Below the pieces are notes generated by a model. The model had not been told where the DNA came from and made no database searches. It saw only the letters and a program-made list of their open reading frames with translations. A stretch of DNA of 47,122 bases, taken from an uncultured Candidatus Sericytochromatia bacterium (GTDB lineage Bacteria; Cyanobacteriota; Sericytochromatia; UBA7694). The stretch lies in NCBI GenBank assembly GCA_964598905.1, contig CAZRFI010000001.1:24341-71462 (forward strand), read 5' to 3'. The position numbers were made by a program, and so were the translations under genes. Shown one piece after another: positions 4,817-29,305 of this stretch. Each line of letters begins with the position of its first letter. Position 1 is the stretch's first letter.

Positions 4817-4830
4817 AGGACGTGCTCACC

Positions 4831-4838
4831 TGTATAAT
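4831..4838 (+). promoter_or_regulatory. Candidate -10 element (tgTATAAT) for ppsA
   Basis: TATAAT at 4833-4838 is preceded by TG and lies 34 nt upstream of the ppsA ATG. A GGGAGGG RBS lies at 4860-4866. The divergent intergenic region is only 55 nt. Confidence 0.4.
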
Positions 4839-4871
4839 TAAATATCCTTTTGAAACGCTGGGAGGGCCCGC

Positions 4872-13400: not shown

Positions 13401-14046
13401 ACTTTGTTTTTGAAAAAACGGACAAATCTGCTTCTGAGGTGTATTCAGAACCGTCAAGAATTAACATATCCGGTGCAGGGAGGTTTTCTTGCTCTGCCAA
13501 TTGTTTCAAAAGACCGATTTGCGCTTCTGGTCGAGAAGCAAAATCCTGTAGTTCACTTTGGGACTTATCTAACCAATAATCCAGCGGGAATTGGTGCCAA
13601 GCCGATTTTTGGGTGCGAAAAAAATGGGTCAGCTGGGCCAGGTCTGGATAAAAGGACTTGCTTTGGCTATAGCCATGAAACAGGCCCAAGTCTGGCTCTT
13701 GGCCCAATTCCTGTAAAAATTGCTGAAAGCGCATGGGCTCAGACTCAATCAGGCTGATATGGGGTTTGTCAGCGCGCAATTTGCGGGCCAATATCAGGGT
13801 CTGCAGCAAAGACAGATCTCCCTGCACGCCGATATACAGCACATGCGCCAGCGCTTCGGCAAATACCAATTGAAATAGGTTGCGGTACAAAGGCGCCTCG
13901 GGAACGAGTCGCTCAAGCGCCTTTAAATCGCGGGAAAAATCAGGTGTGGTCATGACTTCAGCATAACGGATTCTGCCTGCAATTGACAATTTTGGTATAG
14001 CGGTTCTCAGAGAAAATTTTAAAATCCCCTTTTGCCCTGGATTCAT
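10471..14046 (-). CDS. Multidomain glycosyltransferase (N-terminal Rossmann-like region + GT2 + second GT2-like + GT4/GT1-type)
   Basis: 1191-aa ORF. The GT2 module is ISVVIHTRNEAANIEACLSSV..LDADERIP (res ~265-450). The second GT-A-like module is SGYTYLKNGIKYDYPFRESIRSVVSLCDQFVICY..HVQADEV (res ~520-760). The C-terminal GT4 module is LLTSLGEGFGMPLIEAQACGLPVLAPDHSAIPEVV. An alternative start at ATG 13953 (M32) would leave room for the tRNA promoter. Confidence 0.85.
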   Translation of the reverse strand: MNPGQKGILKFSLRTAIPKLSIAGRIRYAEVMTTPDFSRDLKALERLVPEAPLYRNLFQLVFAEALAHVLYIGVQGDLSLLQTLILARKLRADKPHISLIESEPMRFQQFLQELGQEPDLGLFHGYSQSKSFYPDLAQLTHFFRTQKSAWHQFPLDYWLDKSQSELQDFASRPEAQIGLLKQLAEQENLPAPDMLILDGSEYTSEADLSVFSKTKLIILTGVSSYRNFVNFQRLVDDPDYYLMYQNAQQRMGFAIFKRKPVYQQGISVVIHTRNEAANIEACLSSVAWATERVVIDMFSQDNTPVLAQTHGARVVPHVPIYFIDEARNFGLSQVQCAWTLVLDADERIPPALAEKLQFLSQNPEGNTGFWLARQNWFFGQWIQHLFPDFQMRFFASGKGAWTGMIHDFARIQGETVHLPADPALALQHYSYTSVQDFCERQIYYARSTVKQYMQLSPQIHVEAQAIRKDFEQDLEKLLKKLKSTPMDDVNWLTQTLYLFSNYLTGASLLEAFAPKQHSGVFLSGYTYLKNGIKYDYPFRESIRSVVSLCDQFVICYATDSEDHTLAELQILAEEFSQIELYPSDIWRQNRGHEGEVIRKAAEEAMGYCQGEWLWHVQADEVYHEDDLKLLREQLYSAGAEKIDAYRFRVLHFYGNYTTLIKESAQEIGWYQRCIRLTRRGKAQHIKDAWTQILNPADPGLVKDLEIRIFHYGHVREAEAMRIKMSYMEKLYADLPDSYEVCPEGDFIYDRIPSAYLTAFEGSHPQCLRLRMAQARLTEMQALRRSSKGGKPRVLLLSRHHQIKKGFGISLNEVYGTGILQRYFEVHHLAWHYHEADTLMDGVHVYSTRPDDSLGLQRLKHLLVMIEPDVILLHADMHFFPAFLPILEAWQGAVVGWFPIDYARDQNPSALMPLLQRCNRIASLSRFGVNQIQKNYTGPCEVIPLGVNTERFMPVNSAEEKSRLRKQLQWPEASFVFLMVGNNFWRKGIEYAIESFYQFKLKFPDLAKQAFLYLHTENAEGLKELISVYRLGEFVKISDNFDPYQRPLSQESLLELYQASDSLLLTSLGEGFGMPLIEAQACGLPVLAPDHSAIPEVVGRAGLLIKAPQVICGQSADSIVWLRVPEPMDAAERMAELMTNPQLRAELSQRALQQAGSQTWQLTAWLLADSLGQCHALGRPVFEYDEPRMIAV

Positions 14047-14070: not shown

Positions 14071-14144
14071 GGCACAGTAGCTCAGTTGGTTAGAGCACTC
14101 GGTTCATACCCGAGTTGTCGCTGGTTCGAATCCAGCCTGTGCTA
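14071..14144 (+). tRNA. tRNA with CAU anticodon (elongator Met, or Ile2 if lysidine-modified)
   Basis: Hand-folded cloverleaf. The acceptor pairs GGCACAG with CTGTGCT (G1-U72). The D arm is GTAGCTCAGTTGGTTAGAGCAC. The anticodon stem pairs CTCGG with CCGAG around the loop TTCATAC. The T arm is GCTGGTTCGAATCCAGC and the discriminator is A. The anticodon stem lacks the three G-C pairs of an initiator. CCA is not encoded (ACCT). Confidence 0.9.
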
Positions 14145-14216
14145 CCTTATTACGCCTCCTCAATTCATTTAGGGGGCGTTTTCAGTTTCTGGATCAACTT
14201 GGCAGGCAGGTACCAT

Positions 14217-16550
14217 GTGAATCTGCAGGATATTAAAACGGTCCTGGGTAACAGAGCCCCCGCGGCTTTGGAAAGCCTGTACAAAACCTTTCGCGAAGCT
14301 CATCCAGATGCCAATATGGATCAATTTGCCCTGTATTTGCTCGAAACCAAAACCATTTCGGCCGGGGAATTGCAAGAAATTCATCTGCTCGAACCGATAG
14401 AAGTGACCCATATCGACCTGCTTAGCCAATCCCATCTGATTGAACAGCAATTGCAGGATACCCCAGTCAGAACCACCCACACCCAGCACTCTGAACAATA
14501 TGAATTTTTAGGGCTGCTCGGCCAAGGAGCGATGGGTTTGGTACACAGGGCCCGCGACAAAGATTTGATGCGCGTAATTGCGTATAAACAATTGCTGCAA
14601 GAAATGGCCCAAAACCGCGGAGTCTTGCGGCGGTTTCTCAACGAAGTTCAGATCACGGCCCAATTGGATCACCCCAATATCGTTCCTATCTACAATTTGG
14701 ATATTCGCCCCGATGGCTCTTTGGCCTATGCCATGAAGATGGTTAAAGGTAAAACCTTCAAGGAGTTGATCCAAGAAACCCGTGATTTTTATGATCAGGA
14801 CAAACTGCCCGACGCCGACCACAGCCGTGAAGTGCTCTTGGAACATTTTCTCAAGGTGCTGGATGCCATGGCCTATGCCCACAACAAACAAGTCATCCAC
14901 CGTGACTTAAAACCTGCCAATATTATGATTGGTGAGTATAACGAGGTATATGTCATGGATTGGGGCATCGCCAAACTCTTTCGCGATGGCTCAATGGAAG
15001 AAGAGATCGATTTGGGCCACAAAGTCAGTGATGATTTGCTGGGTGATCAAACCCAAATGGGCCAAATTGTGGGGACCCCCCGTTACATGTCGCCCCAGCA
15101 GGCGGCGGGAAAAAACCAGGAGTTGGATGGCCGCAGTGATCAATTTTCCTTGGGATTAATCCTCTATGAATTGGTCTTTCTCAAACCGGCTTTTACGGCC
15201 AAAAGCCAAGTTGAACTTTTAAAAAGAGTCCTGAAAGCGGAGTTGGATCCGTTTATCCATTACAGTCCCAAAATCAAAATTCCCTCCGAATTAAAAGCCA
15301 TTATTCTCAAAGCCACAGGCCGCAAGCCCGATCAACGCTATGCAAACACAGGTGATTTAGCCCTGGACCTGCGCCGTTTTTTGCGCGGCGAGGAAATCGA
15401 AGCCCAGCCCGACAATTGGCTGCGCAAATCTCTGCGCTGGGTAGAGCAGCACAAAAGGGGAACTGCCCTGACAGTCATGGCCCTTTTGGGGCTCTCGGCA
15501 GCGGTAACCGTCTCCATGACTTGGCGACAACAGATCGAGATTCAAAATTCACATCAGCGCGAAAAAGTGCTCAGTAGCCACTTGACCCAGATTGCCGCCC
15601 AAAGTCAACGCCTCGACAGCGAATTTTTAAAAATCCAAAGCCTACTGGAAAAATTGGTTGCAGCTGCTGAAGTCAGCTTAAAAGCTCCTCCCCCCAGCCA
15701 AACGGCCCAGATCAAGCAGGTTTATTTCAACCCAGATTTTGCCAGTTCCAGCACCTCCCCCCCCGATTTTGCTTTTTCACAGGCCTATCACCGGGAAATC
15801 AGCACTGGCTGGGCAGGGATTAAAATGGCTCCGGGTGTAAGCAAGGCCAGTGTGAGCCAAGAATTGGGTCAATTAAGCGCATTAACCCATACCTTTCAAA
15901 GCCTCTTTCAAGAGAGCAGCAGTCCCCCTTTGCCTGATGCAAAAGCCTTGAATAAAGCGCTCAACACCACTGGACTGCCTTTGGTTTGGGCCTATATCGG
16001 CTTGGAAAAAGGGGTGCACTTTGCCTACCCTGGCAAAGGGGGCTATAAAGAGAGTTATGATCCCCGCCAACGCCCCTGGTACCAATGGGCCCAAGACAAA
16101 AATACAGTCGTTTGGGGACAGCCTTATCTCGACGCATCTGGGCAAGGGCTACTCTTGCCCTGTGTGCAAAGCCTGTATGGCCATAAAGAAAAAAAATTGG
16201 GGGTGGCGGGGGTTGAACTGAGCCTGGCCCATTGGCTCAAAAATCTGCTGCCCATGGCCAACAGTCAAGGAATAGAAAATATTTATTTACTCAATCAAGT
16301 GGGTGAAATTGTGGTTCAAACCAAAGAGAACAAAGCCCAAAGCCCAGCCGACAAACTGGTTTTAACGCCCTATCCCGAAGCCGAGATTCGGGCCGGTTTA
16401 AAGCAAAAACCTTCAGGCCATGGCCATGCCATTATCAAACGAGAAGGTCAATCTCCCCTGCTGGTTGCGTATACCCGGCTCAATTCAATCGGTTGGTATT
16501 ATGTGGTTGAAAGCAATGCCGAGTTGCTTTTCAAGCCTGTGCCAAAATAA
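14217..16550 (+). CDS. Hanks-type Ser/Thr protein kinase with TM helix and extracytoplasmic Cache-like sensor domain
   Basis: Kinase motifs are GLLGQGAMGLV, VIAYK, HRDLKPANIM, DWG (the DFG equivalent) and GTPRYMSP. A TM helix (ALTVMALLGLSAAVTVSM) follows. The C-terminal domain carries Cache signatures (YDPRQRPWYQWA, GQPYLDASGQGLLLP, LGVAGVELS). The start is set at GTG 14217 because the longer ORF (from 14115) overlaps the tRNA. Confidence 0.9.
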   Translation: MNLQDIKTVLGNRAPAALESLYKTFREAHPDANMDQFALYLLETKTISAGELQEIHLLEPIEVTHIDLLSQSHLIEQQLQDTPVRTTHTQHSEQYEFLGLLGQGAMGLVHRARDKDLMRVIAYKQLLQEMAQNRGVLRRFLNEVQITAQLDHPNIVPIYNLDIRPDGSLAYAMKMVKGKTFKELIQETRDFYDQDKLPDADHSREVLLEHFLKVLDAMAYAHNKQVIHRDLKPANIMIGEYNEVYVMDWGIAKLFRDGSMEEEIDLGHKVSDDLLGDQTQMGQIVGTPRYMSPQQAAGKNQELDGRSDQFSLGLILYELVFLKPAFTAKSQVELLKRVLKAELDPFIHYSPKIKIPSELKAIILKATGRKPDQRYANTGDLALDLRRFLRGEEIEAQPDNWLRKSLRWVEQHKRGTALTVMALLGLSAAVTVSMTWRQQIEIQNSHQREKVLSSHLTQIAAQSQRLDSEFLKIQSLLEKLVAAAEVSLKAPPPSQTAQIKQVYFNPDFASSSTSPPDFAFSQAYHREISTGWAGIKMAPGVSKASVSQELGQLSALTHTFQSLFQESSSPPLPDAKALNKALNTTGLPLVWAYIGLEKGVHFAYPGKGGYKESYDPRQRPWYQWAQDKNTVVWGQPYLDASGQGLLLPCVQSLYGHKEKKLGVAGVELSLAHWLKNLLPMANSQGIENIYLLNQVGEIVVQTKENKAQSPADKLVLTPYPEAEIRAGLKQKPSGHGHAIIKREGQSPLLVAYTRLNSIGWYYVVESNAELLFKPVPK

Positions 16551-16564
16551 GGCCAAAATAAAAC

Positions 16565-19500
16565 ATGATTCCCCTTACACTCGAAGCCCGCAATTTTATG
16601 GCCTATGAACACCTGGCCCTGGATTTTACCCCATTTCAAATTGCCTGTTTGTCTGGCCCCAATGGCAGCGGAAAATCATCGATTTTAGATGCCATGACCT
16701 GGGCCCTGTTTGAAAAATCGCGGGCCAATTTTTCCGAGGAAGTGATTCGCTTGGGCGCTCAAGAGGTACAGGTCCAATTCAGCTTTGAATTGGAAGGGCA
16801 AACCTACCGTATTTTGCGCAGCAAACAGCGTGGCTCTGGCAAATCAAGTGGCAAAGCAGCCTTGGAGTTTCAGGTCAAAGCCGATGACGGCTATCGCTCG
16901 CTGACCGGCAAATCTGTGACCAAGACCCAACAAGAGATCATTCACACTTTACACATGGACTATGGTCTGTTTATCAATTCCTCGTTTATTCTCCAAGGAC
17001 AGGCCGATGTTTTTACCACCAGTTCAGCCAAAGAGCGCAAAGAAGTCTTGGCAGATATTCTCAATTTAAAACAGTATGATTTGCTCCAAGACAAAGCCAA
17101 AGCCAAACGCAACCAGTATTTGCTCGACAAACAGCAAATCCAGGGCCAGATCAATCAAATTGAGTCCCAGCTCAGCTCAGAGCTTTTTCTCAAAGACCAA
17201 CACCTCAGCCTGAAAGAGGAATACCAAACTTTAAATGAGGCTTTGCGCTCTCAACTGCGGGCACAAACAGAATTGGAAACTGAAAAACAGCAGTTGAGCC
17301 AAGCACGTTTGCAGCTCGAACATGTTCAGAATCGCCAGCAACAACTCACGGTTGAATTGCAAAAAAAAGAAATTGACAGCCTGGCTCAGAGCCAAGAAAA
17401 AGCCCGGATCCAAAAATTAATCGACCAGCAAGAGGCTATTGCCCAAGGCTATCAACACCTGCAAAGTCTGATCGAAAAACAAGACCAGTTTGAATCACTC
17501 TACGCGGACTATCTTAAGCAGCAGGAAACTCTGAGAGCAGCTCAAAACGAGTGGGTAAAGCTGAAGCATCTAAAAGAAAAAGAATTGCAACAGGCCCAAA
17601 ATAACTGGCAAAACTTGGTCAAAGAAGAAAAGCAGTGGCAGCACATACTCGCTGAAAGGGAAACGATAGAAAAAGATTGGCAGGACTTGCAAAGCTGCCA
17701 AGCCGAAGTAAACAGCTTGGATGAAAAGGCCCGCGTCTATCGCAATTTGGAAAAGGCACTTTGGGAGCAAACCCAAAAAACAAAGGCTTTCAGTGACGAT
17801 AAAACGGCAGAAAGCCAACGCCTCAGGGCCCAAATCGCTGAGGACCGTTTGCAATTAGCACAGACACAAACCCTGGCAGAAACAATCAGCAAACTCGAAA
17901 CAGATTTGGAAAAGCTGGACCAATTGCAATCTGAATTGGAGCAAGTTACCGCCAAAGGCCAAAGCTGTAAACACCTCAGCCAAAGTTTGGCCGAAAAAAT
18001 GGCTGCACTGCAGGAAAGCCAAACTGAGATCCGCGAAAAAACGCGCAAAATGCAAAACCATGCTGAAGATCATTGCCCCCTGTGTGAACGCCTGCTCAGT
18101 CAGGATGATGTGGTCCTACTCCTGAATAAATACCAATTGGAATTGGAAAAATCCAACCAGGTTCAGCAAACACTTGAGCGTGAGAGGAGTGAAAACGAAA
18201 CACTCGCGGCGAATTGTCGCCAAGATTTTGTGCGTCTGACGCGCGAACTCAAACACAAAGATGCGCTTTTGCAAAAACTGGCACAGGCCCGCCTCGAAGC
18301 TGAAAAATTGCAAGCCCTACAACAACTTTTGCTTGAAAGAGAAGCGGCTCTTAACATTGCAGAGCACTGGCAAGACTCCTTGGCTTGGCAAGTTGAGCAA
18401 ACAGCCCTTGAAGAACTGAAAGAGCAGATTGAAAGGATTCAATACATTGAAGCAGTCCATGACAAATGCCTCACTGAATTGCGCAATCGACAATCGGCTG
18501 CTGTGCGCCATCACGAACTGCTCAACGCCCAGGAGGCCATGCAAAGCCTACTACCCCGGCTAAAAGCGGCACAAACAGAGACAGAGAAACTGGCTGAGGC
18601 TTTTCATACACAGGCTTTTGGCCGAGATATTCTCATGAAAATCTCAGACCTTGAGTCCCATTTAAAACCTTTGGCCCATTTACCTGAAACCATCAATCAA
18701 AACAAAGCAGAACTGCAACGCCTGCGGGTCTACCAACAGAAATGGGAAGCCTTAAAAGCCGGTCAAGAATCCTGGGATCAGCTTTTGTTTCAGGAAAAGC
18801 GTTTGCAAGCCGATTTACGCAATTTACACAGCGAAGCCCAAAGTCTGGCGACACAAATGGCCGAACTCCCAAGTCTAAATGCTCGTCTGGAAGCCAATTT
18901 TACCCAACTAACCCCTCTGCTCTCAGCCCTCTCTACGACCCAAAACCGGGAAAGAGAATTACATGCCAGGCTGTTCTCTCTCGAAAAAGAATTGAGTGCG
19001 TTATCAGAGCAAAAAGTGGAATTGCTCGCAAATCAAAGTCAATTCCAAACCTTGGAAAAGGAACATCGGCTCTATGCTGAATTGGTCGATATTTTTGGCC
19101 AGAAAGGCATACAGGCAGTGGTGATCGAAAATGCCCTGCCTGAAATAGAACAGTCTGCCAACGACTTACTCAGCCAAATGACAGAGGGGCGTATGCACCT
19201 CAAGTTTCAGACCTTAAAATCGCTAAAATCTCGGGATGCGTTGAGCGAAACACTGGATATATTTATCAGCGATGAATTGGGCACACGCAGCTATGAGACC
19301 TTCAGTGCCGGCGAAGCTTTTCGCGTCAATTTTGCGATTCGCCTTGCCATTTCTCGCACCTTGGCGCGCAGGGCAGGGGCAAAACTCCAAACCCTGGTGA
19401 TTGATGAGGGCTTTGGCAGCCAGGATACCCAAGGTAAAAGCCGCTTGGTGGAAGCCATCAATGCCGTCTCAAACCTCTATGCCTGTATTTTGGTGATTAC

Positions 19501-19588
19501 CCATGTCGACGACCTCAAATCACTTTTTCCGACCCGGATCGAAGTGCAAAAATATCCAGAAGGCTCACGCATACAGCTTTTGCAATAG
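16565..19588 (+). CDS. sbcC: SbcC/Rad50-family ATPase
   Basis: 1007 aa. Walker A is GPNGSGKSSILDA. The Q-loop region is FILQGQADVF. About 700 aa are coiled coil, with a CxxC zinc hook (CPLC, 18074-18085). The signature-like motif is FSAGE (19301-19315), Walker B is LVIDEGFG and the H-loop is ITHV. It starts 14 nt after the kinase stop. Confidence 0.85.
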   Translation: MIPLTLEARNFMAYEHLALDFTPFQIACLSGPNGSGKSSILDAMTWALFEKSRANFSEEVIRLGAQEVQVQFSFELEGQTYRILRSKQRGSGKSSGKAALEFQVKADDGYRSLTGKSVTKTQQEIIHTLHMDYGLFINSSFILQGQADVFTTSSAKERKEVLADILNLKQYDLLQDKAKAKRNQYLLDKQQIQGQINQIESQLSSELFLKDQHLSLKEEYQTLNEALRSQLRAQTELETEKQQLSQARLQLEHVQNRQQQLTVELQKKEIDSLAQSQEKARIQKLIDQQEAIAQGYQHLQSLIEKQDQFESLYADYLKQQETLRAAQNEWVKLKHLKEKELQQAQNNWQNLVKEEKQWQHILAERETIEKDWQDLQSCQAEVNSLDEKARVYRNLEKALWEQTQKTKAFSDDKTAESQRLRAQIAEDRLQLAQTQTLAETISKLETDLEKLDQLQSELEQVTAKGQSCKHLSQSLAEKMAALQESQTEIREKTRKMQNHAEDHCPLCERLLSQDDVVLLLNKYQLELEKSNQVQQTLERERSENETLAANCRQDFVRLTRELKHKDALLQKLAQARLEAEKLQALQQLLLEREAALNIAEHWQDSLAWQVEQTALEELKEQIERIQYIEAVHDKCLTELRNRQSAAVRHHELLNAQEAMQSLLPRLKAAQTETEKLAEAFHTQAFGRDILMKISDLESHLKPLAHLPETINQNKAELQRLRVYQQKWEALKAGQESWDQLLFQEKRLQADLRNLHSEAQSLATQMAELPSLNARLEANFTQLTPLLSALSTTQNRERELHARLFSLEKELSALSEQKVELLANQSQFQTLEKEHRLYAELVDIFGQKGIQAVVIENALPEIEQSANDLLSQMTEGRMHLKFQTLKSLKSRDALSETLDIFISDELGTRSYETFSAGEAFRVNFAIRLAISRTLARRAGAKLQTLVIDEGFGSQDTQGKSRLVEAINAVSNLYACILVITHVDDLKSLFPTRIEVQKYPEGSRIQLLQ

Positions 19589-19590
19589 CC

Positions 19591-21216
19591 TCAGGGCAGC
19601 ACTTCTAGGTTCCAATTATTGTAAAAGGTAAATTGATAAGCGTTGTTTACAGGTGGGTCAGACAGGCCCACCCGAATATTTTGTTTGCCTACCTGAGAAA
19701 AAGTCACAGGGATATCAAAGGCTGTGGTTTTAGCCAAATCCAAAGGGCTGCCTTGAATCGCGCCATTGACAAAAATGCCTGCTGCGCCTACGTTTTTGAG
19801 TGATTTCCCTTTAATATGGATTGTCTCCCCCAGCTTAACTTTGGCCGGTAGTGTCTCTAACTCAAACCGGCGCACAAAAAAGTTTTGGGTGATATATAAA
19901 AATCCATCAGGAGAAGCGGCAATCCCCAAACCGACATGGGTCCAGTCGGGCTTGAGCATCGTCTTGCGGTGCCCTGGACTACTCATTAGCTCTTTTTGGG
20001 AATTTTCGAGACTGCGGCTGATAGCGATATTTTGGGCCACCAATTCAGAGACACCAAAGAGATTGGCCTGCATTTGGGGGGTGCCTACAATGGGTGAATT
20101 GTGGCCAATATACCCCTGAGCAATCATTTCTTCGGAATGGGACTGAGACGCTTTGTCCAATTGGGTCTCCGCGAGCACGACCGCCTCGCCCATTGCTTGA
20201 CGATCTTGGTTGATCAACGCCAGGAGACGGCTGCGCAATTGATCCAACGCTGGCAAAGGGGTGGGAGAGGGAATTGGCGCGTTATCGGGTTGAGGGTAAG
20301 GAACACCCACCGCCAAGACAAAATTCGTGGCAGGTTGCGGACCCAAGGGGCCAATAACGTTGATTTCAAAGCTGTAATAGCCCTTACTTTTGAGACTTAA
20401 AGGCAACTCAAAGGAATTGCCACTCGCGGTGAGCTTCAGCTCCTCAATTGTGCCGTCAGGCAAGGTAACCAACCCTTCGGGCTGACTGTAGCTTTCGTTG
20501 AGTAACTGGCCTTTAATTTGCAAATTTTGTGGCCCGGAATAGATCAGGGGCATTTGATCGAGGCCAATAATTTCAGTTAGCAGCACCAGGCTGATAAACC
20601 AAGCTGAATCTTTGCGCAGCACCTCAACCCCATAATGGGTATAGGGTAAAACCCCCAGAGAGTCTGAAACCTGTTGTTGAAAACGCTGCAAAAGGCGCTC
20701 ACGGTTGGAGTCTGAGAAATAAGCGCTTAAGAGATTGTCTGAAGGGTATTTGCCCCGACTCAAAATCAGGGTTTGCAGGCCAGATGCCGCCACAGGCTCA
20801 TAATTTGCCTGCACTTTGAAATTCGTATCCTTGGGGTTCAAGGCAATTTGCAAGGCATGTTGCCGCGTAATTTCACTCACCACAGGTTCTTCTTTGACAT
20901 TTGGTAATAGTTGCGCCAAAATGTTGACAATATCCTGGCGAAAACTGGCATCGGCACTGACTTCAGACGGTAATTTGACTGGACCTGGGTTCGGGGGATT
21001 GCTGCTGGCGTTTGGCATGGGTTGAGACGGGCTTGAGACAGGCCCCACAGGTGGGACGGATGCAGTTCCAGAGGTTTGCACCTGGGGTGTGGCAGAGGCT
21101 GAAGGCAGAGTACTGCTGGGACGGGTTTGATTCGTGGATTGATTGGCGGGTTGGCAAGCAATGAAAGTCAAACTTAAAAACGCCCCAACACCGGCTCCCG
21201 AAAGGATCTTATTCAT
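19591..21216 (-). CDS. Lipoprotein with C-terminal-half CAP/SCP (PR-1-like, YkwD-type) domain
   Basis: 541 aa with a signal peptide and lipobox (LTFIAC), then a Ser/Pro-rich linker. CAP-domain motifs are LINQDR..SQSHSEEM..GYIGHNSP..MSSPGHRKTML..WTHVGLGIA. Confidence 0.8.
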   Translation of the reverse strand: MNKILSGAGVGAFLSLTFIACQPANQSTNQTRPSSTLPSASATPQVQTSGTASVPPVGPVSSPSQPMPNASSNPPNPGPVKLPSEVSADASFRQDIVNILAQLLPNVKEEPVVSEITRQHALQIALNPKDTNFKVQANYEPVAASGLQTLILSRGKYPSDNLLSAYFSDSNRERLLQRFQQQVSDSLGVLPYTHYGVEVLRKDSAWFISLVLLTEIIGLDQMPLIYSGPQNLQIKGQLLNESYSQPEGLVTLPDGTIEELKLTASGNSFELPLSLKSKGYYSFEINVIGPLGPQPATNFVLAVGVPYPQPDNAPIPSPTPLPALDQLRSRLLALINQDRQAMGEAVVLAETQLDKASQSHSEEMIAQGYIGHNSPIVGTPQMQANLFGVSELVAQNIAISRSLENSQKELMSSPGHRKTMLKPDWTHVGLGIAASPDGFLYITQNFFVRRFELETLPAKVKLGETIHIKGKSLKNVGAAGIFVNGAIQGSPLDLAKTTAFDIPVTFSQVGKQNIRVGLSDPPVNNAYQFTFYNNWNLEVLP

Positions 21217-21228
21217 GCGTTACCCTCT

Positions 21229-24200
21229 TTAAGTTAATGCAATATGGTTAAATGGGCTTGCGACTTCGCACCTTGCAGGTTCAATGACAGCTGCGCGCAC
21301 ACTCACCCATTGCTGCAATTTATGAAAAATAAATGGACAAAGGGGAGCAAATGCAGCCTCATAATCGTTTAAAACTGCGTTGACCACAGGTACCGCACTG
21401 CTCAAATCTGGGCCACGGCGGTGTTCTATCACCCGATTGATATAATCGATTAAAGTTTTGACCGCTAAGACCAAAAGATGTCCCACTTCAGAAAAATGAT
21501 TCAGACCATAAGCCAAAACGGCCTGTTCTAGCCAAGCACTGGCTTGAGCCATGATTGCCTGATCTTCGGCCTGCCAGGATTCACACAACAGCCCTTCAAA
21601 GGACTGCCGGGGTGCCAATTGGAAAAAGCCACTGACTTTGGTATTTAATGCGTGCAAAGTCTTGCGGGCCATTCGCAGCCGATCCTCTGACAGCATTGCC
21701 ACCTCTGGAGAATGGGAGGTCAATGAAAAAACATATCCCAATCGCAGAGCGTCGGCCCCAAAACGCCGGATCAGGGTCACGGGTTCCACCACATTGCCCA
21801 AACGGTATTTCATCGGACGTTTGACCATGCGTTGTACAAATCTCTCTTCGTCAAAGGCCCCCTGTTCAGAGGTCTCAATTCCCGATTGCGGGAGCAACAT
21901 CCGTTCCATGACATGCAAGGTTCCGTGCACGTGAATATGTTTAAACAGAGGACGACCGCTGACAATTACTCCGACCAAGAGCGAGGGAACGATCCAACGA
22001 AAGAGCCATTCTGCATCGACAAAGACCTCATCGATGGGCTCTGGTTTCGGATTGTTGGGCCAACCTGCCCCCTGCAAAGCCCAGGCCGCCATCGAAAACC
22101 AAGTCGAAAAGACGTTCTCGCTATTGTTGATCGGATTGCCCCACCAATATTGGCGCGATATACACCAAACAGAGAGCCGGGAGAGTATTTTTAACATGCG
22201 TTCTTTCCAAAGTGGCGCACTGAATGTGACTTCATCTTCGCTAATACTGCGATAGAGTAAGCGCACAGCCTCTTCGATTCTCACAAAAAGCTGAGTACTG
22301 TATCTGGGAATCACACTCACACCAGAACGGGAACAATAGAGGGCCTCTACTGACCAATCGCCCGTTTCTGTGCGAACTTGAGCCTGTAACTGAGCGAGGA
22401 TTTTCTCCCGCGTTTCATTGACACTGAGCTTTTCATATCCAGGTGCAGAAACACGGCCATCAGCATCAAAGAGTTGCACTTCGGGAAAAATTTGCCATTC
22501 ACGGGCCAAGCGTTCGTGGTATTTTCGTGCCAGCGGCACAATAAATTCCAGATCATTCTCAAGCTCCAGTGAAGAAATGACAGGAATTGTGTGAGCATAA
22601 ATGGGGTGTTTAATTTCTTGACCAGCCCAATGGGCATAAGGCCCTTCGTCATGCACGCCCAGAGCCACCACACCCGGCAGATATTCGGGAAAGTAAAATG
22701 CCACCTCGGCTGGACTGTGATCGACATTCAGTACGGTCAGAAAATACCGTGCCCGAACTCGGTGGGTTCCCCGGCGCAAATCCGAAGCCACCAATACCGA
22801 CGACGAAGCAGGACTGTGGTAGGCAATGCACTCCTGATCATAAGTCAATCCGGCCTTGAAGAGATATTCAAACAGAGCATCAACGCTTTCACGGCCAGCG
22901 TCGCGAATCGGGCTCTGCCACAAATCAGGGTCAAAACCCGCACCGGTTTGTTGCAATTGTTCGCGCACAAGTGCTTCATGGCGAAAATAATGGTCACGGC
23001 AGAGGGAGAAAAACTCGGCACGGCCCAATTCTTCGCGGGTATAAGGCGAATTGCGCTCAACCGCCAATTGCAATGCCAAGCCCCCATGTTCACTGCCAAT
23101 TACCCGCCGGGGGGTGAATTGGTGGTGTCTGTGCAAGGCCCGAGATTTTATATCCAATAATACGGAAGACATAATTCCACCCAGATCTGGAGCTGAAGCT
23201 GTATTTATGGGTGTGGCGGCCAAAACAGGCGATTTACCCCCATAGAAGCGCTCTCTCTCCCAAAGCAAGCGAAGGGGCGGCTCATCCAAAGTGGGTACAA
23301 ATGCAGGTTCAAATTCTGCCTTTTTTTTGAATTTGGGTTTGGCATTGGCCCAGTCCGAGATCACAAGATGATCGATGAGGCGGCGGCCACGGTGCCCCAA
23401 AAGGGGATGTAATTCACAGGCCGCCATATCTGCCAAATCGTTGGCAGCTTGGGTTGGGGTGCAGTGGCGACTATTGGCATAGTTGAACACGCGGAGTGTA
23501 TCTGGAAAGACCCGCTCTGCAGCCAATTGAACGTCTTCAGCCAGATAGCCCTGCCATTCATCGGCACAGTTAACAATCCCCATGCGGTTGCAGATAAAGT
23601 CTGGAACAAAGCCAATATTCCGCTGTCTTAAGCGTTCAGCATCAGCCTCTGGCTCACGCAAAATATTATTGGCAGCCCCGCAAACCAACTTCACTTTGAG
23701 TCGGGGAATGGTATCAACATTGACTTGGGCCCCAATTGCACAGGGAGCAAAGACATCGGCATCGGCATCAAAGATCGCTTCAGGGGGATTAATGACCTGC
23801 AAATGAGAGCGCTCAGACAGCATTTCTTGTAGCGAGGTGGCGTTCACATCGGCAATCATCACCTCAGCCCCCAGATCATCCAAGGCCCGGATCAAAGGCG
23901 CTCCCACATTTCCCGTGCCCTGCACGGCCACACGTACGCCCCGCAAATCATCGCTGCCAGCAATCGAGAGCCAAGCGGCCTGCATCGCCCGTAACACGCC
24001 TCTGGCCGTAAATGGCGAAGGATTGCCACTGCCGCCGCGTTCGGGAGGGATACAGGTTGTAAAGCGATTCTGACTTAAGAGAGCCGTCATGTCCTGGGTA
24101 TTGGTGCCAACATCTTCAGCGGTATAATAGACCCCACCCAAAGAGGCCACAAATCGCCCATAGGCCTCAAAACATGCTGCTCTTTCGGGACTTGGCTCAA

Positions 24201-24660
24201 ATTCACGCGGGTGTGAAAAGCGGGAAGGAAGAGTCATAATCCCTTTGCCTCCACCCCAATGCAGGCCAGCCAAGGCATTTTTACGTGTCATGCCTTGGGA
24301 AAGCCGCAAACCATCCACCAACAATTCAGCCAAATTCAAATAGCGGGTAAAGCGAAGACCACCTTGAGCCAAACCCCGCCGGGTATCATGCACAAAGGCA
24401 AAAAAGAGCGAATCGATGCCTGCTTCCCTCCCGATAAAGACCCCCTCATGACTTGAAAAATCTTGAGAGAGTTCAAAAAAGGCCTGCAAGGGCTGCAAGA
24501 GTGTGGGATGTGAGAGCCGAAAAGCGCCGTTTTCATAGACCAAATAGGCCCGTGTTACATCCGCCGCTTCAAGCTGATTTAAAAAATCTTCCAAGCTCCA
24601 CTGGCGACAGAGACGGGCTTGAGACTGGCGCAGGGAGGCAGAGCGATCGCGTTTGTGCAT
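21229..24660 (-). CDS. Fusion protein: Leu/Val/Phe-type amino-acid dehydrogenase (N) + ValRS-like class I aaRS body with degenerate catalytic motifs (C)
   Basis: 1143 aa. Res ~60-420 are collinear with LeuDH (GGLRF, MTRKNALAG, GGGKG catalytic Lys, YTAEDVGT, SGNPSPFTA, NAD fold VQGTGNVG, GAANN). Res ~455-1143 are collinear with ValRS (FEYLFKAGLTY, WCISRQYWWG, STWFSM, LGNVVEP..FGADALR, anticodon-binding helices). However, HIGH is replaced by DLGG and KMSKS by PMKYR. Confidence 0.85.
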   Translation of the reverse strand: MHKRDRSASLRQSQARLCRQWSLEDFLNQLEAADVTRAYLVYENGAFRLSHPTLLQPLQAFFELSQDFSSHEGVFIGREAGIDSLFFAFVHDTRRGLAQGGLRFTRYLNLAELLVDGLRLSQGMTRKNALAGLHWGGGKGIMTLPSRFSHPREFEPSPERAACFEAYGRFVASLGGVYYTAEDVGTNTQDMTALLSQNRFTTCIPPERGGSGNPSPFTARGVLRAMQAAWLSIAGSDDLRGVRVAVQGTGNVGAPLIRALDDLGAEVMIADVNATSLQEMLSERSHLQVINPPEAIFDADADVFAPCAIGAQVNVDTIPRLKVKLVCGAANNILREPEADAERLRQRNIGFVPDFICNRMGIVNCADEWQGYLAEDVQLAAERVFPDTLRVFNYANSRHCTPTQAANDLADMAACELHPLLGHRGRRLIDHLVISDWANAKPKFKKKAEFEPAFVPTLDEPPLRLLWERERFYGGKSPVLAATPINTASAPDLGGIMSSVLLDIKSRALHRHHQFTPRRVIGSEHGGLALQLAVERNSPYTREELGRAEFFSLCRDHYFRHEALVREQLQQTGAGFDPDLWQSPIRDAGRESVDALFEYLFKAGLTYDQECIAYHSPASSSVLVASDLRRGTHRVRARYFLTVLNVDHSPAEVAFYFPEYLPGVVALGVHDEGPYAHWAGQEIKHPIYAHTIPVISSLELENDLEFIVPLARKYHERLAREWQIFPEVQLFDADGRVSAPGYEKLSVNETREKILAQLQAQVRTETGDWSVEALYCSRSGVSVIPRYSTQLFVRIEEAVRLLYRSISEDEVTFSAPLWKERMLKILSRLSVWCISRQYWWGNPINNSENVFSTWFSMAAWALQGAGWPNNPKPEPIDEVFVDAEWLFRWIVPSLLVGVIVSGRPLFKHIHVHGTLHVMERMLLPQSGIETSEQGAFDEERFVQRMVKRPMKYRLGNVVEPVTLIRRFGADALRLGYVFSLTSHSPEVAMLSEDRLRMARKTLHALNTKVSGFFQLAPRQSFEGLLCESWQAEDQAIMAQASAWLEQAVLAYGLNHFSEVGHLLVLAVKTLIDYINRVIEHRRGPDLSSAVPVVNAVLNDYEAAFAPLCPFIFHKLQQWVSVRAAVIEPARCEVASPFNHIALT

Positions 24661-24675: not shown

Positions 24676-25266
24676 TTAATGGTGATGGGGAGCCGCAGGG
24701 CGATAATAGGGATTGTCTCCCTCAGCATGGTTGGTGGTATCTATGACGTGTTTGATCTCAGGAATGGTCTCAAGAATGGCTTTTTCAACGCCCTGTTTAA
24801 GAGTCACACTGGCCATACCACAGCCCTGACAGCCTCCCCCAAAATGGACAAAAACCTTGTCTTCTTTGAGTTCGAGCAATTCAAGATAGCCCCCATGGCT
24901 GGCCAATGAGGGGTTGATCTGGGTATCAATTAATTCTTGTACCTGTTGTTCGAGCGGATGTCCCCAACTGGGCAGATTGGGGTTGTTAACTTTAAAGCCC
25001 CCACCGTACATATCGTCGACAAATTCAATCCGCGCCCCTTCGATATTTTTGGCTGTTTTGGGGTCGAGCAATATCCGCAATTCACCGGAGGTGACTTCCA
25101 GATCTTCGGGTTTTTCGTGACCGGGGTCAACCAAGGAAAGCGCATGTTGATAACCTTGAGCGCTGCGGCCCGTAATCCGGATACGCAAGGCGCTCATGCT
25201 TTTGGATTCCTCTTGTAACATACTGGCAATTTTTTCTTTGGCATTGTCTTCAATGGTAATTTGCAT
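24676..25266 (-). CDS. nfuA: Fe-S cluster carrier NfuA-type protein (degenerate A-type N domain + Nfu C domain)
   Basis: The C-terminal Nfu motif is GGCQGCGMASVTLKQGVE and the N-terminal domain is HesB/IscA-like. The start is set at M4 (ATG 25266), which has better GGAG spacing and aligns with the E. coli NfuA N-terminus. The ORF track starts at 25275. Confidence 0.85.
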   Translation of the reverse strand: MQITIEDNAKEKIASMLQEESKSMSALRIRITGRSAQGYQHALSLVDPGHEKPEDLEVTSGELRILLDPKTAKNIEGARIEFVDDMYGGGFKVNNPNLPSWGHPLEQQVQELIDTQINPSLASHGGYLELLELKEDKVFVHFGGGCQGCGMASVTLKQGVEKAILETIPEIKHVIDTTNHAEGDNPYYRPAAPHHH

Positions 25267-25321
25267 ATGGCTCATTTCTCCTGCCAGATTTGAACTGGCT
25301 ATATAGATAACTCATCATTGC

Positions 25322-26000: not shown

Positions 26001-27224
26001 CTATCGCTCTGGCCAGGTCAGAGCCAAAACGGCCAAAGCGGCAGCTCCCACAGGCAGTGCCGCTTCGTCGATATCGAAATGGGAATTGTGTAGGCCAGGG
26101 ATTTTGGCTTTTTCAGGTGAGCGCACACCCAATCGCAAAAAAGTGCCAGGAATGGCCTGCAAATACGCACCAAAATCTTCTCCTCCCATGCTCGGTTCGG
26201 GCAATAAGTGCACGTGCTCTGGGCCCAATAATTGGCCGAGTGTTTTAAAGGCAAAGGCGGTGGTGTCTGGATGATTGACCACAGGGGCAGTGCCGTACTG
26301 GTAGTTCAACTCAAAACTGCCACCATTGGCACCTGTGACCCCCTGTAACAGGTCTTCAATCCAACGCGGAAACTGTTCCCGCAATTGGGGACAGAGTGTG
26401 CGCACAGTTCCTCCGAGAGTGACCGCTTCGGGAATCACATTTTCAGCGGCCCCGCCCTGGATAAAACCAATTGTCAGAACAGCCGGTTGAAAGGGATCCA
26501 CCCGACGACTGACCAATTGGTGTAAAGCATTGACAGCTTGAGCTGCCATTAAAATGGGATCAATCGAATGGTGGGGCCGAGCAGCATGGCTGCCTTTGCC
26601 CTTGAGGGTGATCTGAAATACATCTGCCGAGGCCATCATCGGTCCGGGTCGGGTGGCCATCGTGCCAATCGGCAAATCGGGATAGACATGCAGCCCAAAA
26701 ATAGCCTCGACAGGCGGATTGGCCAATACACCCGCTTGAATCAAATGGCTGGCCCCCAAACAATCTGAGCGCTCTTCAGCAGGCTGAAATATCAGGCGAA
26801 TCTGCCCCTTGATCTGACTGCGCCGCTCCCAGAGTAATTGGGCAGCGCCCAATAATACGGATGTATGCACATCGTGGCCACAGGCGTGCATGACCCCTGG
26901 ATGTTGGGAAACATAAGGCACATGATTGCCTTCTTGAATCGGCAAGGCGTCAAGGTCAGCCCGCAGAGCCACCACAGGGCCAGGTAAGTCGCCTTGAATG
27001 GTGGCAATGACTGCAGCTGTTTGGGCGTATTCAGAGACAATCTCAGTTAGGCCGATCTTGGCCAAAACCTGAGCCACAAATTTGCCAGTTTCCACTTCTT
27101 CGCCACTGAGTTCGGGAAAAGCGTGTATGTGGCGTCGCCATTCACACAGACCCGGCCGAAGGGCCTGGGCATCTGCCCATAATTCAGGGTAATTCAGGCA
27201 ATTGCCAGGTACTGCGATTTCCAT
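26001..27224 (-). CDS. M20D-family amidohydrolase (N-acyl-amino-acid / hippurate hydrolase type)
   Basis: Motifs are RRHIHAFPELSGEE, MHACGHDVH and FQPAEE. The start is set at ATG 27224 (M7 of the track ORF, AAAGG RBS). The track start at 27242 is a TTG that overlaps the upstream gene. Confidence 0.88.
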   Translation of the reverse strand: MEIAVPGNCLNYPELWADAQALRPGLCEWRRHIHAFPELSGEEVETGKFVAQVLAKIGLTEIVSEYAQTAAVIATIQGDLPGPVVALRADLDALPIQEGNHVPYVSQHPGVMHACGHDVHTSVLLGAAQLLWERRSQIKGQIRLIFQPAEERSDCLGASHLIQAGVLANPPVEAIFGLHVYPDLPIGTMATRPGPMMASADVFQITLKGKGSHAARPHHSIDPILMAAQAVNALHQLVSRRVDPFQPAVLTIGFIQGGAAENVIPEAVTLGGTVRTLCPQLREQFPRWIEDLLQGVTGANGGSFELNYQYGTAPVVNHPDTTAFAFKTLGQLLGPEHVHLLPEPSMGGEDFGAYLQAIPGTFLRLGVRSPEKAKIPGLHNSHFDIDEAALPVGAAALAVLALTWPER

Positions 27225-27228
27225 GGCA

Positions 27229-27636
27229 TCAGGCCTTTTCAAACTCAGCCCGGATACCTTCCAAGCGGCGCAAATTGGTCCCCCAATCGTTATAGCCGAT
27301 CCGGGAAGCGGAGCGCATGTGAATCAAGCCATCGGTCTTGGGGAAATAAAATTCAACATCATCGGTAAATTTGAAGACTTTGGTTCGGCATTGGTAATAG
27401 AGGTAGTGATCTTCAGCTTTGATCAGATGGGTCAAGGGCAGGGCTTTGAGCACAGCCATCAATTTGGTTCTTGCTGTTTCACGGCTACAGGTATATGTTA
27501 AGGGCGCGACATAATAAGTGGTATTTTGGGGATCCGCCATCGATGAGCGGCAATTGGGTGTTTTCGAGAGGGGTTGAAATTGATCCTGGTTCATTCCGAC
27601 TTTGGGGGCCATAAACGATTCCTTTTTCTCTATCAT
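27229..27636 (-). CDS. DUF1499-family protein
   Basis: The C-terminal pattern FTDDVEFYF..IHMRSASRIGYNDWGTNLRRLE is typical of DUF1499. The start is set at ATG 27636 (M36 of the track ORF) because the first 35 codons are Arg/His-rich and look non-coding. Confidence 0.7.
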   Translation of the reverse strand: MIEKKESFMAPKVGMNQDQFQPLSKTPNCRSSMADPQNTTYYVAPLTYTCSRETARTKLMAVLKALPLTHLIKAEDHYLYYQCRTKVFKFTDDVEFYFPKTDGLIHMRSASRIGYNDWGTNLRRLEGIRAEFEKA

Positions 27637-27931: not shown

Positions 27932-29305
27932 ATGTCTTTCCAAACCAAACTGTCTCTCAGTCTCTTGGCCCTGTCCTGTTGTTTGACCACTGCCTGTCAA
28001 AATACCCCATTGCCCCAAGCCCTGTCTGAATCCAGTACTGGCTTAAATTCAGCTGCTGCTACCGATCAACTGTTAACTTTAGAAAATGAAACTGATCTCA
28101 AATTAGAATCATTGATGCCCTCAGGCTTTGGGATCAAATCTGAGCAGAGCTTACAGGCAGGAGACCCGGTGCCTGGACGTTTTATTGTCAAATTTAACGG
28201 TTTGAGTGATGCCGAAATGGCACAAGCGTTGGCAGATGCCCAGGTCACGGTGGTGGGTCACATACAACGCAGTGAACAGATCCAATTGGTAGAGAGTCTA
28301 AATTTGGCCAATCCACAAACGAGTATGGCGTTGCTCCAAAACAATCCCAAGGTCGAATTTGTTGAAGCTGACAGCATTGTCAGCATGACCCAGTCGGCCC
28401 CGACACCGACCCTCTACCCCATCAATGATCCCCTGTTAAAATTTCAATATGGCCATGTCAAAGCACAATCACAGCAGGGATGGGCCCTGGCCCAGGGCGG
28501 CAAGGGTCTGGGTGAGAACACCATCATTGCCATTGCCGATACAGGTGTTGATGGCACTCACCCAGATTTAAAAGACAAAATGATTCAGGGCTACAGTGCC
28601 CTCGCTGGCAAAGTAGATCATGCCGATAGCCATGGACACGGCACCCATTGCGCAGGGATTGCCGCTGCTTCCACCAACAATTCAATGGGGATTGCCGGTT
28701 TTGCTCCCAAAGCCAAGATCATGTCGATTCGCATTCTCAACGACAATGGACTGGGTACATTGGCAGGAGTGACTGCGGGCATAACCTATGCAGCCAACCA
28801 CTCGGCCAGTGTCATTAGCATGAGTTTTGCCAGCCCAGTGCGTTCAGCGGCGATAGAAAATGCCATGAATTATGCCCTCTCAAAGAATACTGTGCTGGTG
28901 GCTGGCATGGGCAATAGTGGGAACGGTACCATTAATTACCCGGCAGCCTTTCCCGGAATGATTGCCGTGGGCGCCACCGATAGCAATGATAAACGCGCAG
29001 CATTTTCTGAATATGGGGCCCATTTGTCGGTTTTGGCACCGGGGGTGAATATCGTCTCCACTTTGCCGGGCAATAAGTACATTGGCTGGAATGGCACTTC
29101 TATGGCCACACCCGCTGTCGCTGGCGTAGTGGCACTGGTCAAAAGTGTCCTGCCCAATCTGGCCCCCAACCAAGTCAAATACCTGATTGAAAAGGCCTCC
29201 GATGATATGGGTGACAAAGGCTTTGATACTTACCATGGTTATGGCCGAATCAATGTTCACAGAACACTGACTTACGCTTTTATCAAAGCAAAACAGACGC
29301 CATAA
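27932..29305 (+). CDS. Subtilisin-like (S8) serine protease, lipoprotein
   Basis: 457 aa with an AAGGAG RBS and a signal peptide plus lipobox (LTTAC). There is an inhibitor-I9-like propeptide (GRFIVKF). The catalytic triad contexts are AIADTGVD, HGHGTHCAGI and GTSMATPAVAG. Confidence 0.9.
   Translation: MSFQTKLSLSLLALSCCLTTACQNTPLPQALSESSTGLNSAAATDQLLTLENETDLKLESLMPSGFGIKSEQSLQAGDPVPGRFIVKFNGLSDAEMAQALADAQVTVVGHIQRSEQIQLVESLNLANPQTSMALLQNNPKVEFVEADSIVSMTQSAPTPTLYPINDPLLKFQYGHVKAQSQQGWALAQGGKGLGENTIIAIADTGVDGTHPDLKDKMIQGYSALAGKVDHADSHGHGTHCAGIAAASTNNSMGIAGFAPKAKIMSIRILNDNGLGTLAGVTAGITYAANHSASVISMSFASPVRSAAIENAMNYALSKNTVLVAGMGNSGNGTINYPAAFPGMIAVGATDSNDKRAAFSEYGAHLSVLAPGVNIVSTLPGNKYIGWNGTSMATPAVAGVVALVKSVLPNLAPNQVKYLIEKASDDMGDKGFDTYHGYGRINVHRTLTYAFIKAKQTP

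Follow-up and report, generated by a model that had tools for sequence, protein, structure and literature searches.

Inactive paralogs of aminoacyl-tRNA synthetases (aaRSs) recruited as sensors, such as HisZ and the HisRS-like domain of GCN2, are few textbook cases, and we know of no sensor-type inactive paralog derived from valyl-tRNA synthetase (ValRS). We analyzed a gene from an uncultured Candidatus Sericytochromatia bacterium that lies in a 47,122-nucleotide (nt) stretch of contig CAZRFI010000001.1 (hereafter, the window). An initial annotation, made from the sequence alone, had described this gene as an uninterrupted fusion of a branched-chain amino-acid dehydrogenase with a catalytically degenerate ValRS-like body. 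The open reading frame (ORF; 21229..24660, minus strand) does encode a single protein of 1143 residues with no interruption. By analogy with the known sensors, we tentatively favor, as quite possible, the reading that the dehydrogenase carries the ValRS-derived pseudoenzyme as a ligand-sensing or regulatory module for an amino acid and/or tRNA-Val.

On the one polypeptide, Pfam profiles PF02812 and PF00208 (49.8 and 58.7 bits; gathering cutoffs 25.3 and 23.4, respectively) covered residues 89-371, and PF00133 (102.6 bits) covered residues 479-844; each of these matches exceeded its gathering cutoff. This is the domain set that had been predicted, except that Anticodon_1 (PF08264), also expected, gave no Pfam match; neither did Val_tRNA-synt_C (PF10458). 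A helical domain resembling the anticodon-binding domain was visible solely in the AlphaFold2 (AF2) model and the Foldseek search. The top NCBIfam matches stayed far below their cutoffs, both for the ScyB tryptophan dehydrogenase (NF035922, 209 bits versus 600) and for valS (NF004349, 163 bits versus 704; TIGR00422, 148 versus 612). Judged by these profiles, the fusion protein is a relative of both the ScyB and valS families and an equivalog of neither.

A sequence search of the PDB matched the N-terminal half to leucine dehydrogenases (LeuDHs; E-value 3e-73), and phmmer gave Thermus thermophilus (Tt) ValRS, 1gax, as the top match of the C-terminal half (E-value 1e-24 to 1e-25). The AF2 model, computed from a 31-sequence alignment, had a mean predicted local distance difference test (pLDDT) score of 84 and a predicted template-modeling (pTM) score of 0.77; the low-confidence segments were a 4-residue linker (residues 443-446), the loop at the former KMSKS position, and the C-terminal tail. 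When this model was used as the Foldseek query, ValRS 1gax came first (E-value 1e-30, template-modeling (TM) score 0.64, 742 aligned columns), followed by isoleucyl-tRNA synthetase (IleRS) structures, and LeuDH and phenylalanine dehydrogenase (PheDH) structures matched the N-terminal half with TM scores of 0.79-0.87. As far as sequence and predicted model can tell, ValRS is the nearest relative of the C-terminal half and the overall class Ia fold is present. The collinearity with ValRS that had been noticed at the outset was recovered by phmmer, MAFFT, and Foldseek against 1gax, at a level far beyond chance.

Among 5.8 billion clustered proteins, at least 120 had the same architecture (45-93% identity, about 97% coverage), and 215 related stretches were recovered when one genome per GTDB species was scanned. 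Where annotated, the homologs carry the name 'class I tRNA ligase family protein'. The closest relatives (93-94% identity) come from metagenome-assembled genomes (MAGs) of Candidatus Sericytochromatia/Blackallbacteria, and further hosts are Acidobacteriota (Thermoanaerobaculia, Holophagales, Blastocatellia), Zhuqueibacterota, Wallbacteria, Planctomycetota, Calditrichota, Cloacimonadota, and Myxococcota; fusion homologs occur in at least eight phyla. An assembly chimera or a frameshift joining two ordinary genes has a single point in its favor, namely that the window comes from a MAG. More than 100 independent assemblies from these phyla share the architecture and the junction at 45-94% identity, and the AF2 model is confident over the junction except for the 4-residue linker. 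An artifact of this kind is therefore ruled out, its probability being negligible, and the assumption that the fusion is genuine is upheld.

The C-terminal half alone, searched by phmmer against 1.84 billion representatives, retrieved 21 clusters at E-values of 1e-30 or lower; the next scores (121 bits or less) belonged to ordinary ValRS. A stand-alone pseudo-ValRS or a different fusion partner was rejected, as none appeared in this exhaustive search and the shorter strong matches were fragments at contig edges. By these searches, the pseudo-synthetase body is known only in fusion with this dehydrogenase. The architecture had been put forward as undescribed. We found no account of it in the full-text literature or in surveys of aaRS paralogs, with most subscription journals lying outside the coverage; it is, however, not rare, with more than 100 proteins in the databases. 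Taken together, these sequence data indicate that the fusion family is widespread, conserved, and uncharacterized.

We aligned the C-terminal half to 1gax by phmmer and, independently, by MAFFT L-INS-i together with 101 long-form family members and 17 canonical ValRSs; the two alignments agreed. The HIGH signature of the T. thermophilus enzyme, H50-M-G-H53, aligns with D492-L-G-G495, and its KMSKS signature, K528-M-S-K-S532, aligns with P949-M-K-Y-R953, precisely at the positions first proposed for DLGG and PMKYR. Essentially every family member, including all 101 of the long form, has lost both ATP signatures. Also absent relative to 1gax are the Zn-binding insertion (Tt 416-449) and the part beyond about Tt residue 780, that is, the junction domain and the C-terminal coiled coil, whose loss had been recognized correctly. 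The CP1 region had been called shortened, but it is near full length: residues 14-405 of the 704-residue C-terminal segment align with 1gax 6-412. Its editing blocks had been said to have no counterpart; the canonical motifs are indeed lost, but degenerate counterparts exist, with TVRPET aligning to FYFPEY (residues 655-660) and TPAHD..D to VPLAR..H (residues 708-715), corresponding to the changes T214F, R216F, T219Y, T272V, H275A, D276R, and D279H relative to the T. thermophilus enzyme. In about 23 of 120 family members, a precise deletion has removed the CP1 core (window-protein residues about 632-768) and left all other blocks in place, and this short form indicates that the editing domain is dispensable.

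The protein thus shares with ValRS (1GAX) the domain order, in which a Rossmann fold split by CP1 is followed by an SC-fold and a helical domain of the anticodon-binding type, as well as the GTDHAG-like, WCISRQxWWG, DTWFS-like, and FGADALR blocks. It differs in having no HIGH, KMSKS, Zn insertion, junction, or coiled coil, in its degenerate editing residues, and in the dehydrogenase at its N-terminus. The family as a whole lacks HIGH, KMSKS, the editing residues, and the coiled coil; to judge by its sequence, the synthetase-like half therefore cannot be a normal synthetase. An active, non-canonical ValRS that forms a bifunctional enzyme with the dehydrogenase despite unusual signatures would be consistent with the ValRS fold and the PF00133 match, and class-I enzymes tolerate some change in HIGH, IleRS2 entries with HIGH variants being among the Foldseek matches. 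However, essentially every member lacks both HIGH histidines and both KMSKS lysines, the protein reaches 163 of the 704 bits required for valS, the Zn insertion and coiled coil are gone, and a genuine valS lies next door in many genomes. We consider this alternative highly improbable.

Selection was estimated as the ratio of nonsynonymous to synonymous substitution rates (dN/dS) by the Nei-Gojobori method against three orthologs of 93-94% identity. The ratio was 0.011-0.029 for the dehydrogenase core, 0.055-0.066 for the whole synthetase-like half, 0.056-0.075 for CP1, and 0.10-0.16 for the helical C-terminal domain. A value of about 0.06 across the synthetase-like half indicates that it is functional and under strong purifying selection. 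On these sequence comparisons, it is clearly not decaying, even in the parts without canonical motifs, and the combination of lost motifs with a fold under purifying selection is that of a non-catalytic aaRS paralog. Conservation within this half is highest around the former active site, in GSDHGGLALQLAVER, WCISRQxWWG, STWFS, RW, and RPMR.

Residues P42, D81, W456, W495, and L492 of ValRS, which we take from the 1GAX complex to surround the valyl moiety, are largely retained: P42 in 100 of 101 members, D81 as Asp or Glu in 91, W456 in 99, and W495 in 100, with L492 also kept. The former active site has in addition acquired family-invariant arginines, namely R519 (for W76), R888 (for F494), and R948 and R951 at the KMSKS position, and an invariant Ser852 replaces Tt D454. 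A conserved, family-specific hairpin of 21 residues (916-936) takes the place of part of the mobile KMSKS loop. Among positions invariant in ValRS, 26/70 are retained in the C-terminal half of the Rossmann fold, 14/72 in its N-terminal half, and 8/41 in CP1. Compared with the canonical ValRS encoded in the same genomes, the synthetase-like half is less acidic, by about 20 charge units.

The dead synthetase might alternatively be a structural appendage that serves as a scaffold for oligomerization, stability, or localization, its proximity to valS being a relic of duplication. The synthetase-like half has diverged more rapidly than the dehydrogenase, with a higher dN/dS and 48% versus 76% identity to the relative L001; some lineages appear to have dropped CP1 or the entire body; and the Sericytochromatia gene no longer lies beside valS. 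Against a scaffold, conservation peaks in the former active site, whereas in a scaffold the hydrophobic core and the interfaces should be the conserved parts; a dN/dS of about 0.06 means strong constraint; and adjacency to valS is kept across phyla at 45-60% protein identity. We regard this explanation as not very probable.

The genomic surroundings of the family provide the next line of evidence. A valS gene lies on the same strand no more than 6 kb downstream in 17 fusion loci (Acidobacteriota and Zhuqueibacterota), usually as the very next gene and in some with overlapping start and stop codons. These valS products score 870-923 bits (cutoff 704) and contain HxGH, a KMSKS-type motif, editing motifs, and the coiled coil. 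Since a canonical valS adjoins the fusion gene in many genomes, the fusion is not the housekeeping ValRS, and the expectation of a separate canonical valS was confirmed where a neighboring valS passes the NCBIfam equivalog cutoff. The possibility that the fusion is the only valS of its genome was rejected by analogy, given that a canonical valS coexists with it in at least 17 other genomes. The adjacency persists across phyla whose fusion proteins are only 45-60% identical. It is also seen in two to three closely related dehydrogenase-only loci and in none of 24 loci of the distant, Myxococcota-type stand-alone dehydrogenases. In two Candidatus Wallbacteria loci (L032 and L033), a tRNA-Val(GAC) gene (13627-13703, plus strand) with a TAGAAT-like -10 element in front of it starts where the fusion gene ends. 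A 12.2-Mb genome (L002) carries ileS (4788-7997, plus strand; 1069 aa), which ends 4 nt before the start of the fusion gene; its product passes TIGR00392 (684 versus 621 bits), has a DUF5915 C-terminus, and shows HHAW as its signature rather than the canonical HxGH.

Turning to the dehydrogenase half, K127 (LeuDH K68), K139 (K80), D183 (D115), and A181 (A113) were invariant across 120 homologs, as were the GxGxxG loop (248-253), D271, which is the acidic residue of the NAD type, and GAANN (328-332). All catalytic and cofactor elements listed in the initial annotation are thus present and invariant. Compared with LeuDH, valine dehydrogenase (ValDH), and PheDH (1LEH, 8GXD, and 6ACF), the half has about 35-45% identity and the same fold (TM score 0.79-0.87), and it shares with LeuDH the catalytic Lys and Asp, the carboxylate-binding Lys, the GxGxxG loop, and the NAD-indicating acidic residue. 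It differs from LeuDH in a 60-residue N-terminal extension, a C-terminal HRGRR helix, and a changed side-chain pocket. The hydrophobic side-chain pocket of LeuDH is formed by L40, A113, V291, and V294 (1LEH). Of these, A113 is retained in the fusion, and L40 is replaced by an invariant Gln99, V294 by an invariant Cys365, and V291 by Ile. Further changes turn Y67 into Arg126, L76 into Trp135, A288 into Arg359, and G289 into Met360, and Arg126, Arg359, and Met360 are invariant in the family. With a pocket altered to this extent, the branched-chain specificity originally assigned to the enzyme is not established, and we identified no characterized enzyme with such a pocket from which a substrate could be assigned.

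Stand-alone dehydrogenases of 430-510 aa, found mainly in Myxococcota, terminate exactly at the fusion junction and share the pocket substitutions, the 60-residue N-terminal extension, and the C-terminal HP-x-x-GHRGRR helix. The occurrence of this subfamily as stand-alone proteins indicates that catalysis does not need the synthetase body. From its residues, the N-terminal half is apparently an active NAD-dependent dehydrogenase of a distinct, uncharacterized ELFV subfamily.

Returning to the sensor reading, it starts from the observed architecture, motif loss, selection, partly kept pocket, and valS synteny, from which we infer ligand binding, the identity of the ligand, regulation of the dehydrogenase, and the substrate. 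The ValRS-derived module would form no aminoacyl-adenylate and would neither charge nor edit tRNA, selection keeping it as a folded binding module. The pocket remnant, possibly with a tRNA-binding surface, would read a valine-like amino acid or 2-oxo acid and/or the status of tRNA-Val, and the bound module would tune the attached dehydrogenase in cis. The idea that the module may bind an amino acid or tRNA-Val, already raised in the initial annotation, gains from the retained pocket residues and from the genomic proximity to valS, joined in a single lineage by tRNA-Val; its tRNA-Val part is doubtful, in view of the 3/19 count given below.

Several observations weigh against this sensor reading. 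The pocket is kept in part only: P41, which we take to be the residue that excludes isoleucine, is replaced by Ala, Thr, or Ser; N44 by Ser; and D454 by an invariant Ser. I491 is variable, and the counterpart of D81 in the window protein is Glu (E524). The anticodon-binding domain retains only 3/19 of the positions invariant in ValRS, and no coiled coil is left; these are the weightiest points against a role specific to tRNA-Val and make its specific recognition doubtful. The two tRNA-Val loci are 99% identical and represent one lineage. The lineage of the window has neither valS nor tRNA-Val beside the fusion gene, its neighbors being NfuA-like and CAP-domain genes, and the valS synteny could be a relic of duplication rather than a sign of functional coupling.

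If the module binds tRNA-Val, the protein would be a dehydrogenase coupled to charging status, a prokaryotic analog of GCN2, or would dispose of or proofread near-cognate amino acids in a tRNA-dependent manner before ValRS misuses them; we consider this somewhat unlikely. Distinctly unlikely, in our view, is a more explicit tRNA-dependent chemistry, in which the body would bind aminoacyl-tRNA, deacylate it or hand it over, and let the dehydrogenase oxidize the freed amino acid, in a form of trans-proofreading or disposal of mischarged or near-cognate residues (for example, Thr or alpha-aminobutyrate). A precedent for the binding step is provided by cyclodipeptide synthases (CDPSs), class-I aaRS-like enzymes that use aminoacyl-tRNA (PMC3105412). 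Consistent with such chemistry, the ATP motifs are gone yet the pocket is partly kept; a tRNA-synthetase architecture is maintained by selection; the former active site has gained invariant arginines and Ser852 in place of Tt D454; synteny connects the gene with valS, tRNA-Val, and ileS; and the module is less acidic than ValRS. The strongest point against aminoacyl-tRNA as the substrate of the dehydrogenase is the invariant K127, which binds a free alpha-carboxylate. In addition, the dehydrogenase stands alone elsewhere, the CP1 hydrolytic site is degenerate and in a subgroup deleted, the identity residues of the anticodon domain and the coiled coil are lost, and the catalytic nucleophile is hypothetical.

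The history of the family was explored with a neighbor-joining (NJ) tree of the dehydrogenase domain, a crude tree without support values, which placed all fusions in a single clade distinct from the Myxococcota-type enzymes, with valS adjacency scattered over its sub-branches. Most likely, the fusion arose once. Three loci (L049, L053, and L079) have dehydrogenase-only genes (at about 10000-11300) that are 56-63% identical to the dehydrogenase of the fusion and are directly followed by valS. Their nested position within the fusion clade of the NJ tree suggests secondary loss of the synthetase module. The simplest course would be that a dehydrogenase gene lay upstream of valS and valS was duplicated in tandem; that the nearer of the two copies became fused to the dehydrogenase gene and its product lost catalysis; and that the dehydrogenase-pseudosynthetase pair then left valS in some lineages, including that of the window, CP1 or the whole module being lost occasionally.

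The features of the fusion protein and its immediate neighbors in the window are listed in the table.

Features of the fusion protein and its flanking genes, in window coordinates (Tt, T. thermophilus ValRS numbering)
Feature	Coordinates	Strand	Remarks
ELFV dehydrogenase + ValRS-derived pseudo-synthetase, whole ORF	21229..24660	-	1143 aa
N-terminal extension, residues 1-60	24481..24660	-	not in LeuDH; common to stand-alone subfamily members
Dehydrogenase substrate/dimerization domain, residues 61-205	24046..24480	-	K127, K139 in GGGKG, D183; unusual pocket Q99, R126, W135
Dehydrogenase NAD-binding Rossmann domain, residues 206-372	23545..24045	-	GxGxxG 248-253, D271, GAANN 328-332, pocket R359/M360/I362/C365
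Dehydrogenase C-terminal helices, residues 373-440	23341..23544	-	conserved HP-x-x-GHRGRR; stand-alone relatives stop at about W437, the fusion junction
Linker, residues 441-470	23251..23340	-	low pLDDT at 443-446
ValRS-like Rossmann N-terminal half, residues 471-625	22786..23250	-	P484 (Tt P42), E524 (Tt D81) in block GS[D/E]HGGLALQLAVER
Degenerate HIGH, D492-L-G-G495	23176..23187	-	family consensus P-[D/N]-L-[A/S/G]-[S/A/G]
CP1 editing-domain homolog, residues 626-775	22336..22785	-	near full length, catalytic motifs degenerate
ValRS-like Rossmann C-terminal half + SC-fold, residues 776-985	21706..22335	-	WCISRQYWWG, STW854FS (Tt W456), R888-W889 (Tt W495), hairpin 916-936
Degenerate KMSKS, P949-M-K-Y-R953	21802..21816	-	family consensus R-P-M-R-x
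Helical-bundle domain similar to ValRS anticodon-binding domain, residues 986-1125	21286..21705	-	by homology, AF2/Foldseek
Disordered C-terminal tail + stop codon	21229..21285	-	ValRS junction and coiled-coil domains absent
NfuA-like protein (Fe-S_biosyn + NifU)	24676..25275	-	upstream, 15 nt from fusion gene; adjacency conserved in very close relatives only
CAP-domain protein	19591..21216	-	downstream, 12 nt from fusion gene

The CAP-domain gene directly follows the fusion gene in eight Sericytochromatia loci, whose fusion proteins are 56-94% identical. The 47-kb window contains no valS, and no T-box, tRNA-Val or other tRNA gene, or known cis-regulatory RNA was found near the fusion gene in it. 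A promoter and terminator scan of the window gave counts equal to the shuffled background. PADLOC had no match for the fusion protein, and membership in a defense system was rejected; in an unclassified bacterium (L083, 2897-13554), the fusion gene lies amid AbiGi, RelB/ParE, HigB/HTH_3, and AbiEii genes of the toxin-antitoxin and abortive-infection type.

Besides valS, the conserved neighbors form no consistent pathway; they comprise the CAP gene in Sericytochromatia, scattered peptidases, short-chain dehydrogenase/reductase (SDR) genes, and a large glutamate dehydrogenase (GDH). In several Acidobacteriota loci (L018, L019, L023, and L026), a gene for a NAD-specific GDH-like protein of about 1600 aa and an SDR gene recur upstream on the opposite strand, and in L082 an SDR gene directly precedes the fusion gene. 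Stand-alone dehydrogenase genes of Myxococcota (L058, L060, L063, L072, L073, and L076) are repeatedly flanked by genes for secreted peptidase-like proteins, of the S9 or M13 type by sequence inspection. An annotated S9 peptidase follows valS in L082 (14707-16788), and the window has an M20 peptidase gene (26001-27242) two genes upstream of the fusion. The recurrence of peptidase neighbors gives a weak hint at a setting of peptide or amino-acid catabolism.

Elsewhere in the window, a c-di-GMP-I-GGC riboswitch aptamer (RF03167; 27832-27906, plus strand) scored 66.5 bits against a gathering cutoff of 59 and lies directly upstream of an S8 subtilase ORF (27932-29305; Peptidase_S8 with a Fervidolysin-type prodomain), which suggests that c-di-GMP or a related dinucleotide controls a secreted S8 protease. 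A tRNA-Met(CAT) gene (14071-14146, plus strand) overlaps the called TTG start of ORF 14115-16550 (plus strand), which encodes a Ser/Thr protein kinase of 811 aa that carries a dCache sensor domain, and the true start of the kinase must therefore be further downstream. An SbcC/Rad50-like ATPase gene (16565-19588, plus strand; 1007 aa; AAA_23, Rad50 zinc hook, SbcC Walker B) and the CAP-domain gene run toward each other, their stop codons only 2 nt apart.

The family amounts to a natural experiment, in which a class-Ia synthetase without ATP chemistry, editing, or coiled coil has kept part of its pocket and been hard-wired to a redox enzyme, often with its gene in putative co-transcription with a true valS. 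Should valine or tRNA-Val be sensed by the module, the fusion would represent a new and compact tie between amino-acid catabolism or synthesis and translation demand, and would offer a ready-made scaffold for ligand-responsive dehydrogenases. The family also defines an uncharacterized ELFV subfamily with an unusual, Arg-rich substrate pocket. Its members are mislabeled as tRNA ligases in poorly studied phyla (Sericytochromatia, Acidobacteriota, Zhuqueibacterota, Wallbacteria, and Planctomycetota), which could mislead inventories of aaRSs.

Among known systems, CDPSs resemble the fusion module in their class-I Rossmann fold, lost ATP signatures, and kept aminoacyl pocket. Unlike it, they are enzymes of about 240 aa, similar to TyrRS and TrpRS, with a defined catalytic Ser and without CP1 or an anticodon domain; the module, ValRS-like, about 700 aa long, and equipped with CP1 and a helical domain, falls outside the CDPS family. 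HisZ, like the fusion module, is an aaRS-derived pseudoenzyme that has lost aminoacylation, keeps parts of the amino-acid site, and is coupled to a metabolic enzyme of a related pathway; it differs in being of class II, derived from HisRS, and a separate subunit whose partner is a transferase, the ATP-phosphoribosyltransferase HisG. Regulation by HisZ is demonstrated, whereas for the fusion protein it is proposed. The HisRS-like domain of GCN2, a sensor of uncharged tRNA, is likewise an inactive synthetase-like domain fused in cis to an effector enzyme, and this shared arrangement points to a possible readout of tRNA charging status. GCN2, however, is eukaryotic and class II-derived, with a kinase as effector, and the anticodon-domain identity residues of the fusion are poorly conserved. 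By these analogies, the fusion protein would work most like the aaRS-derived regulatory pseudoenzymes, but as a class Ia, ValRS-derived, bacterial member fused in cis to a dehydrogenase.

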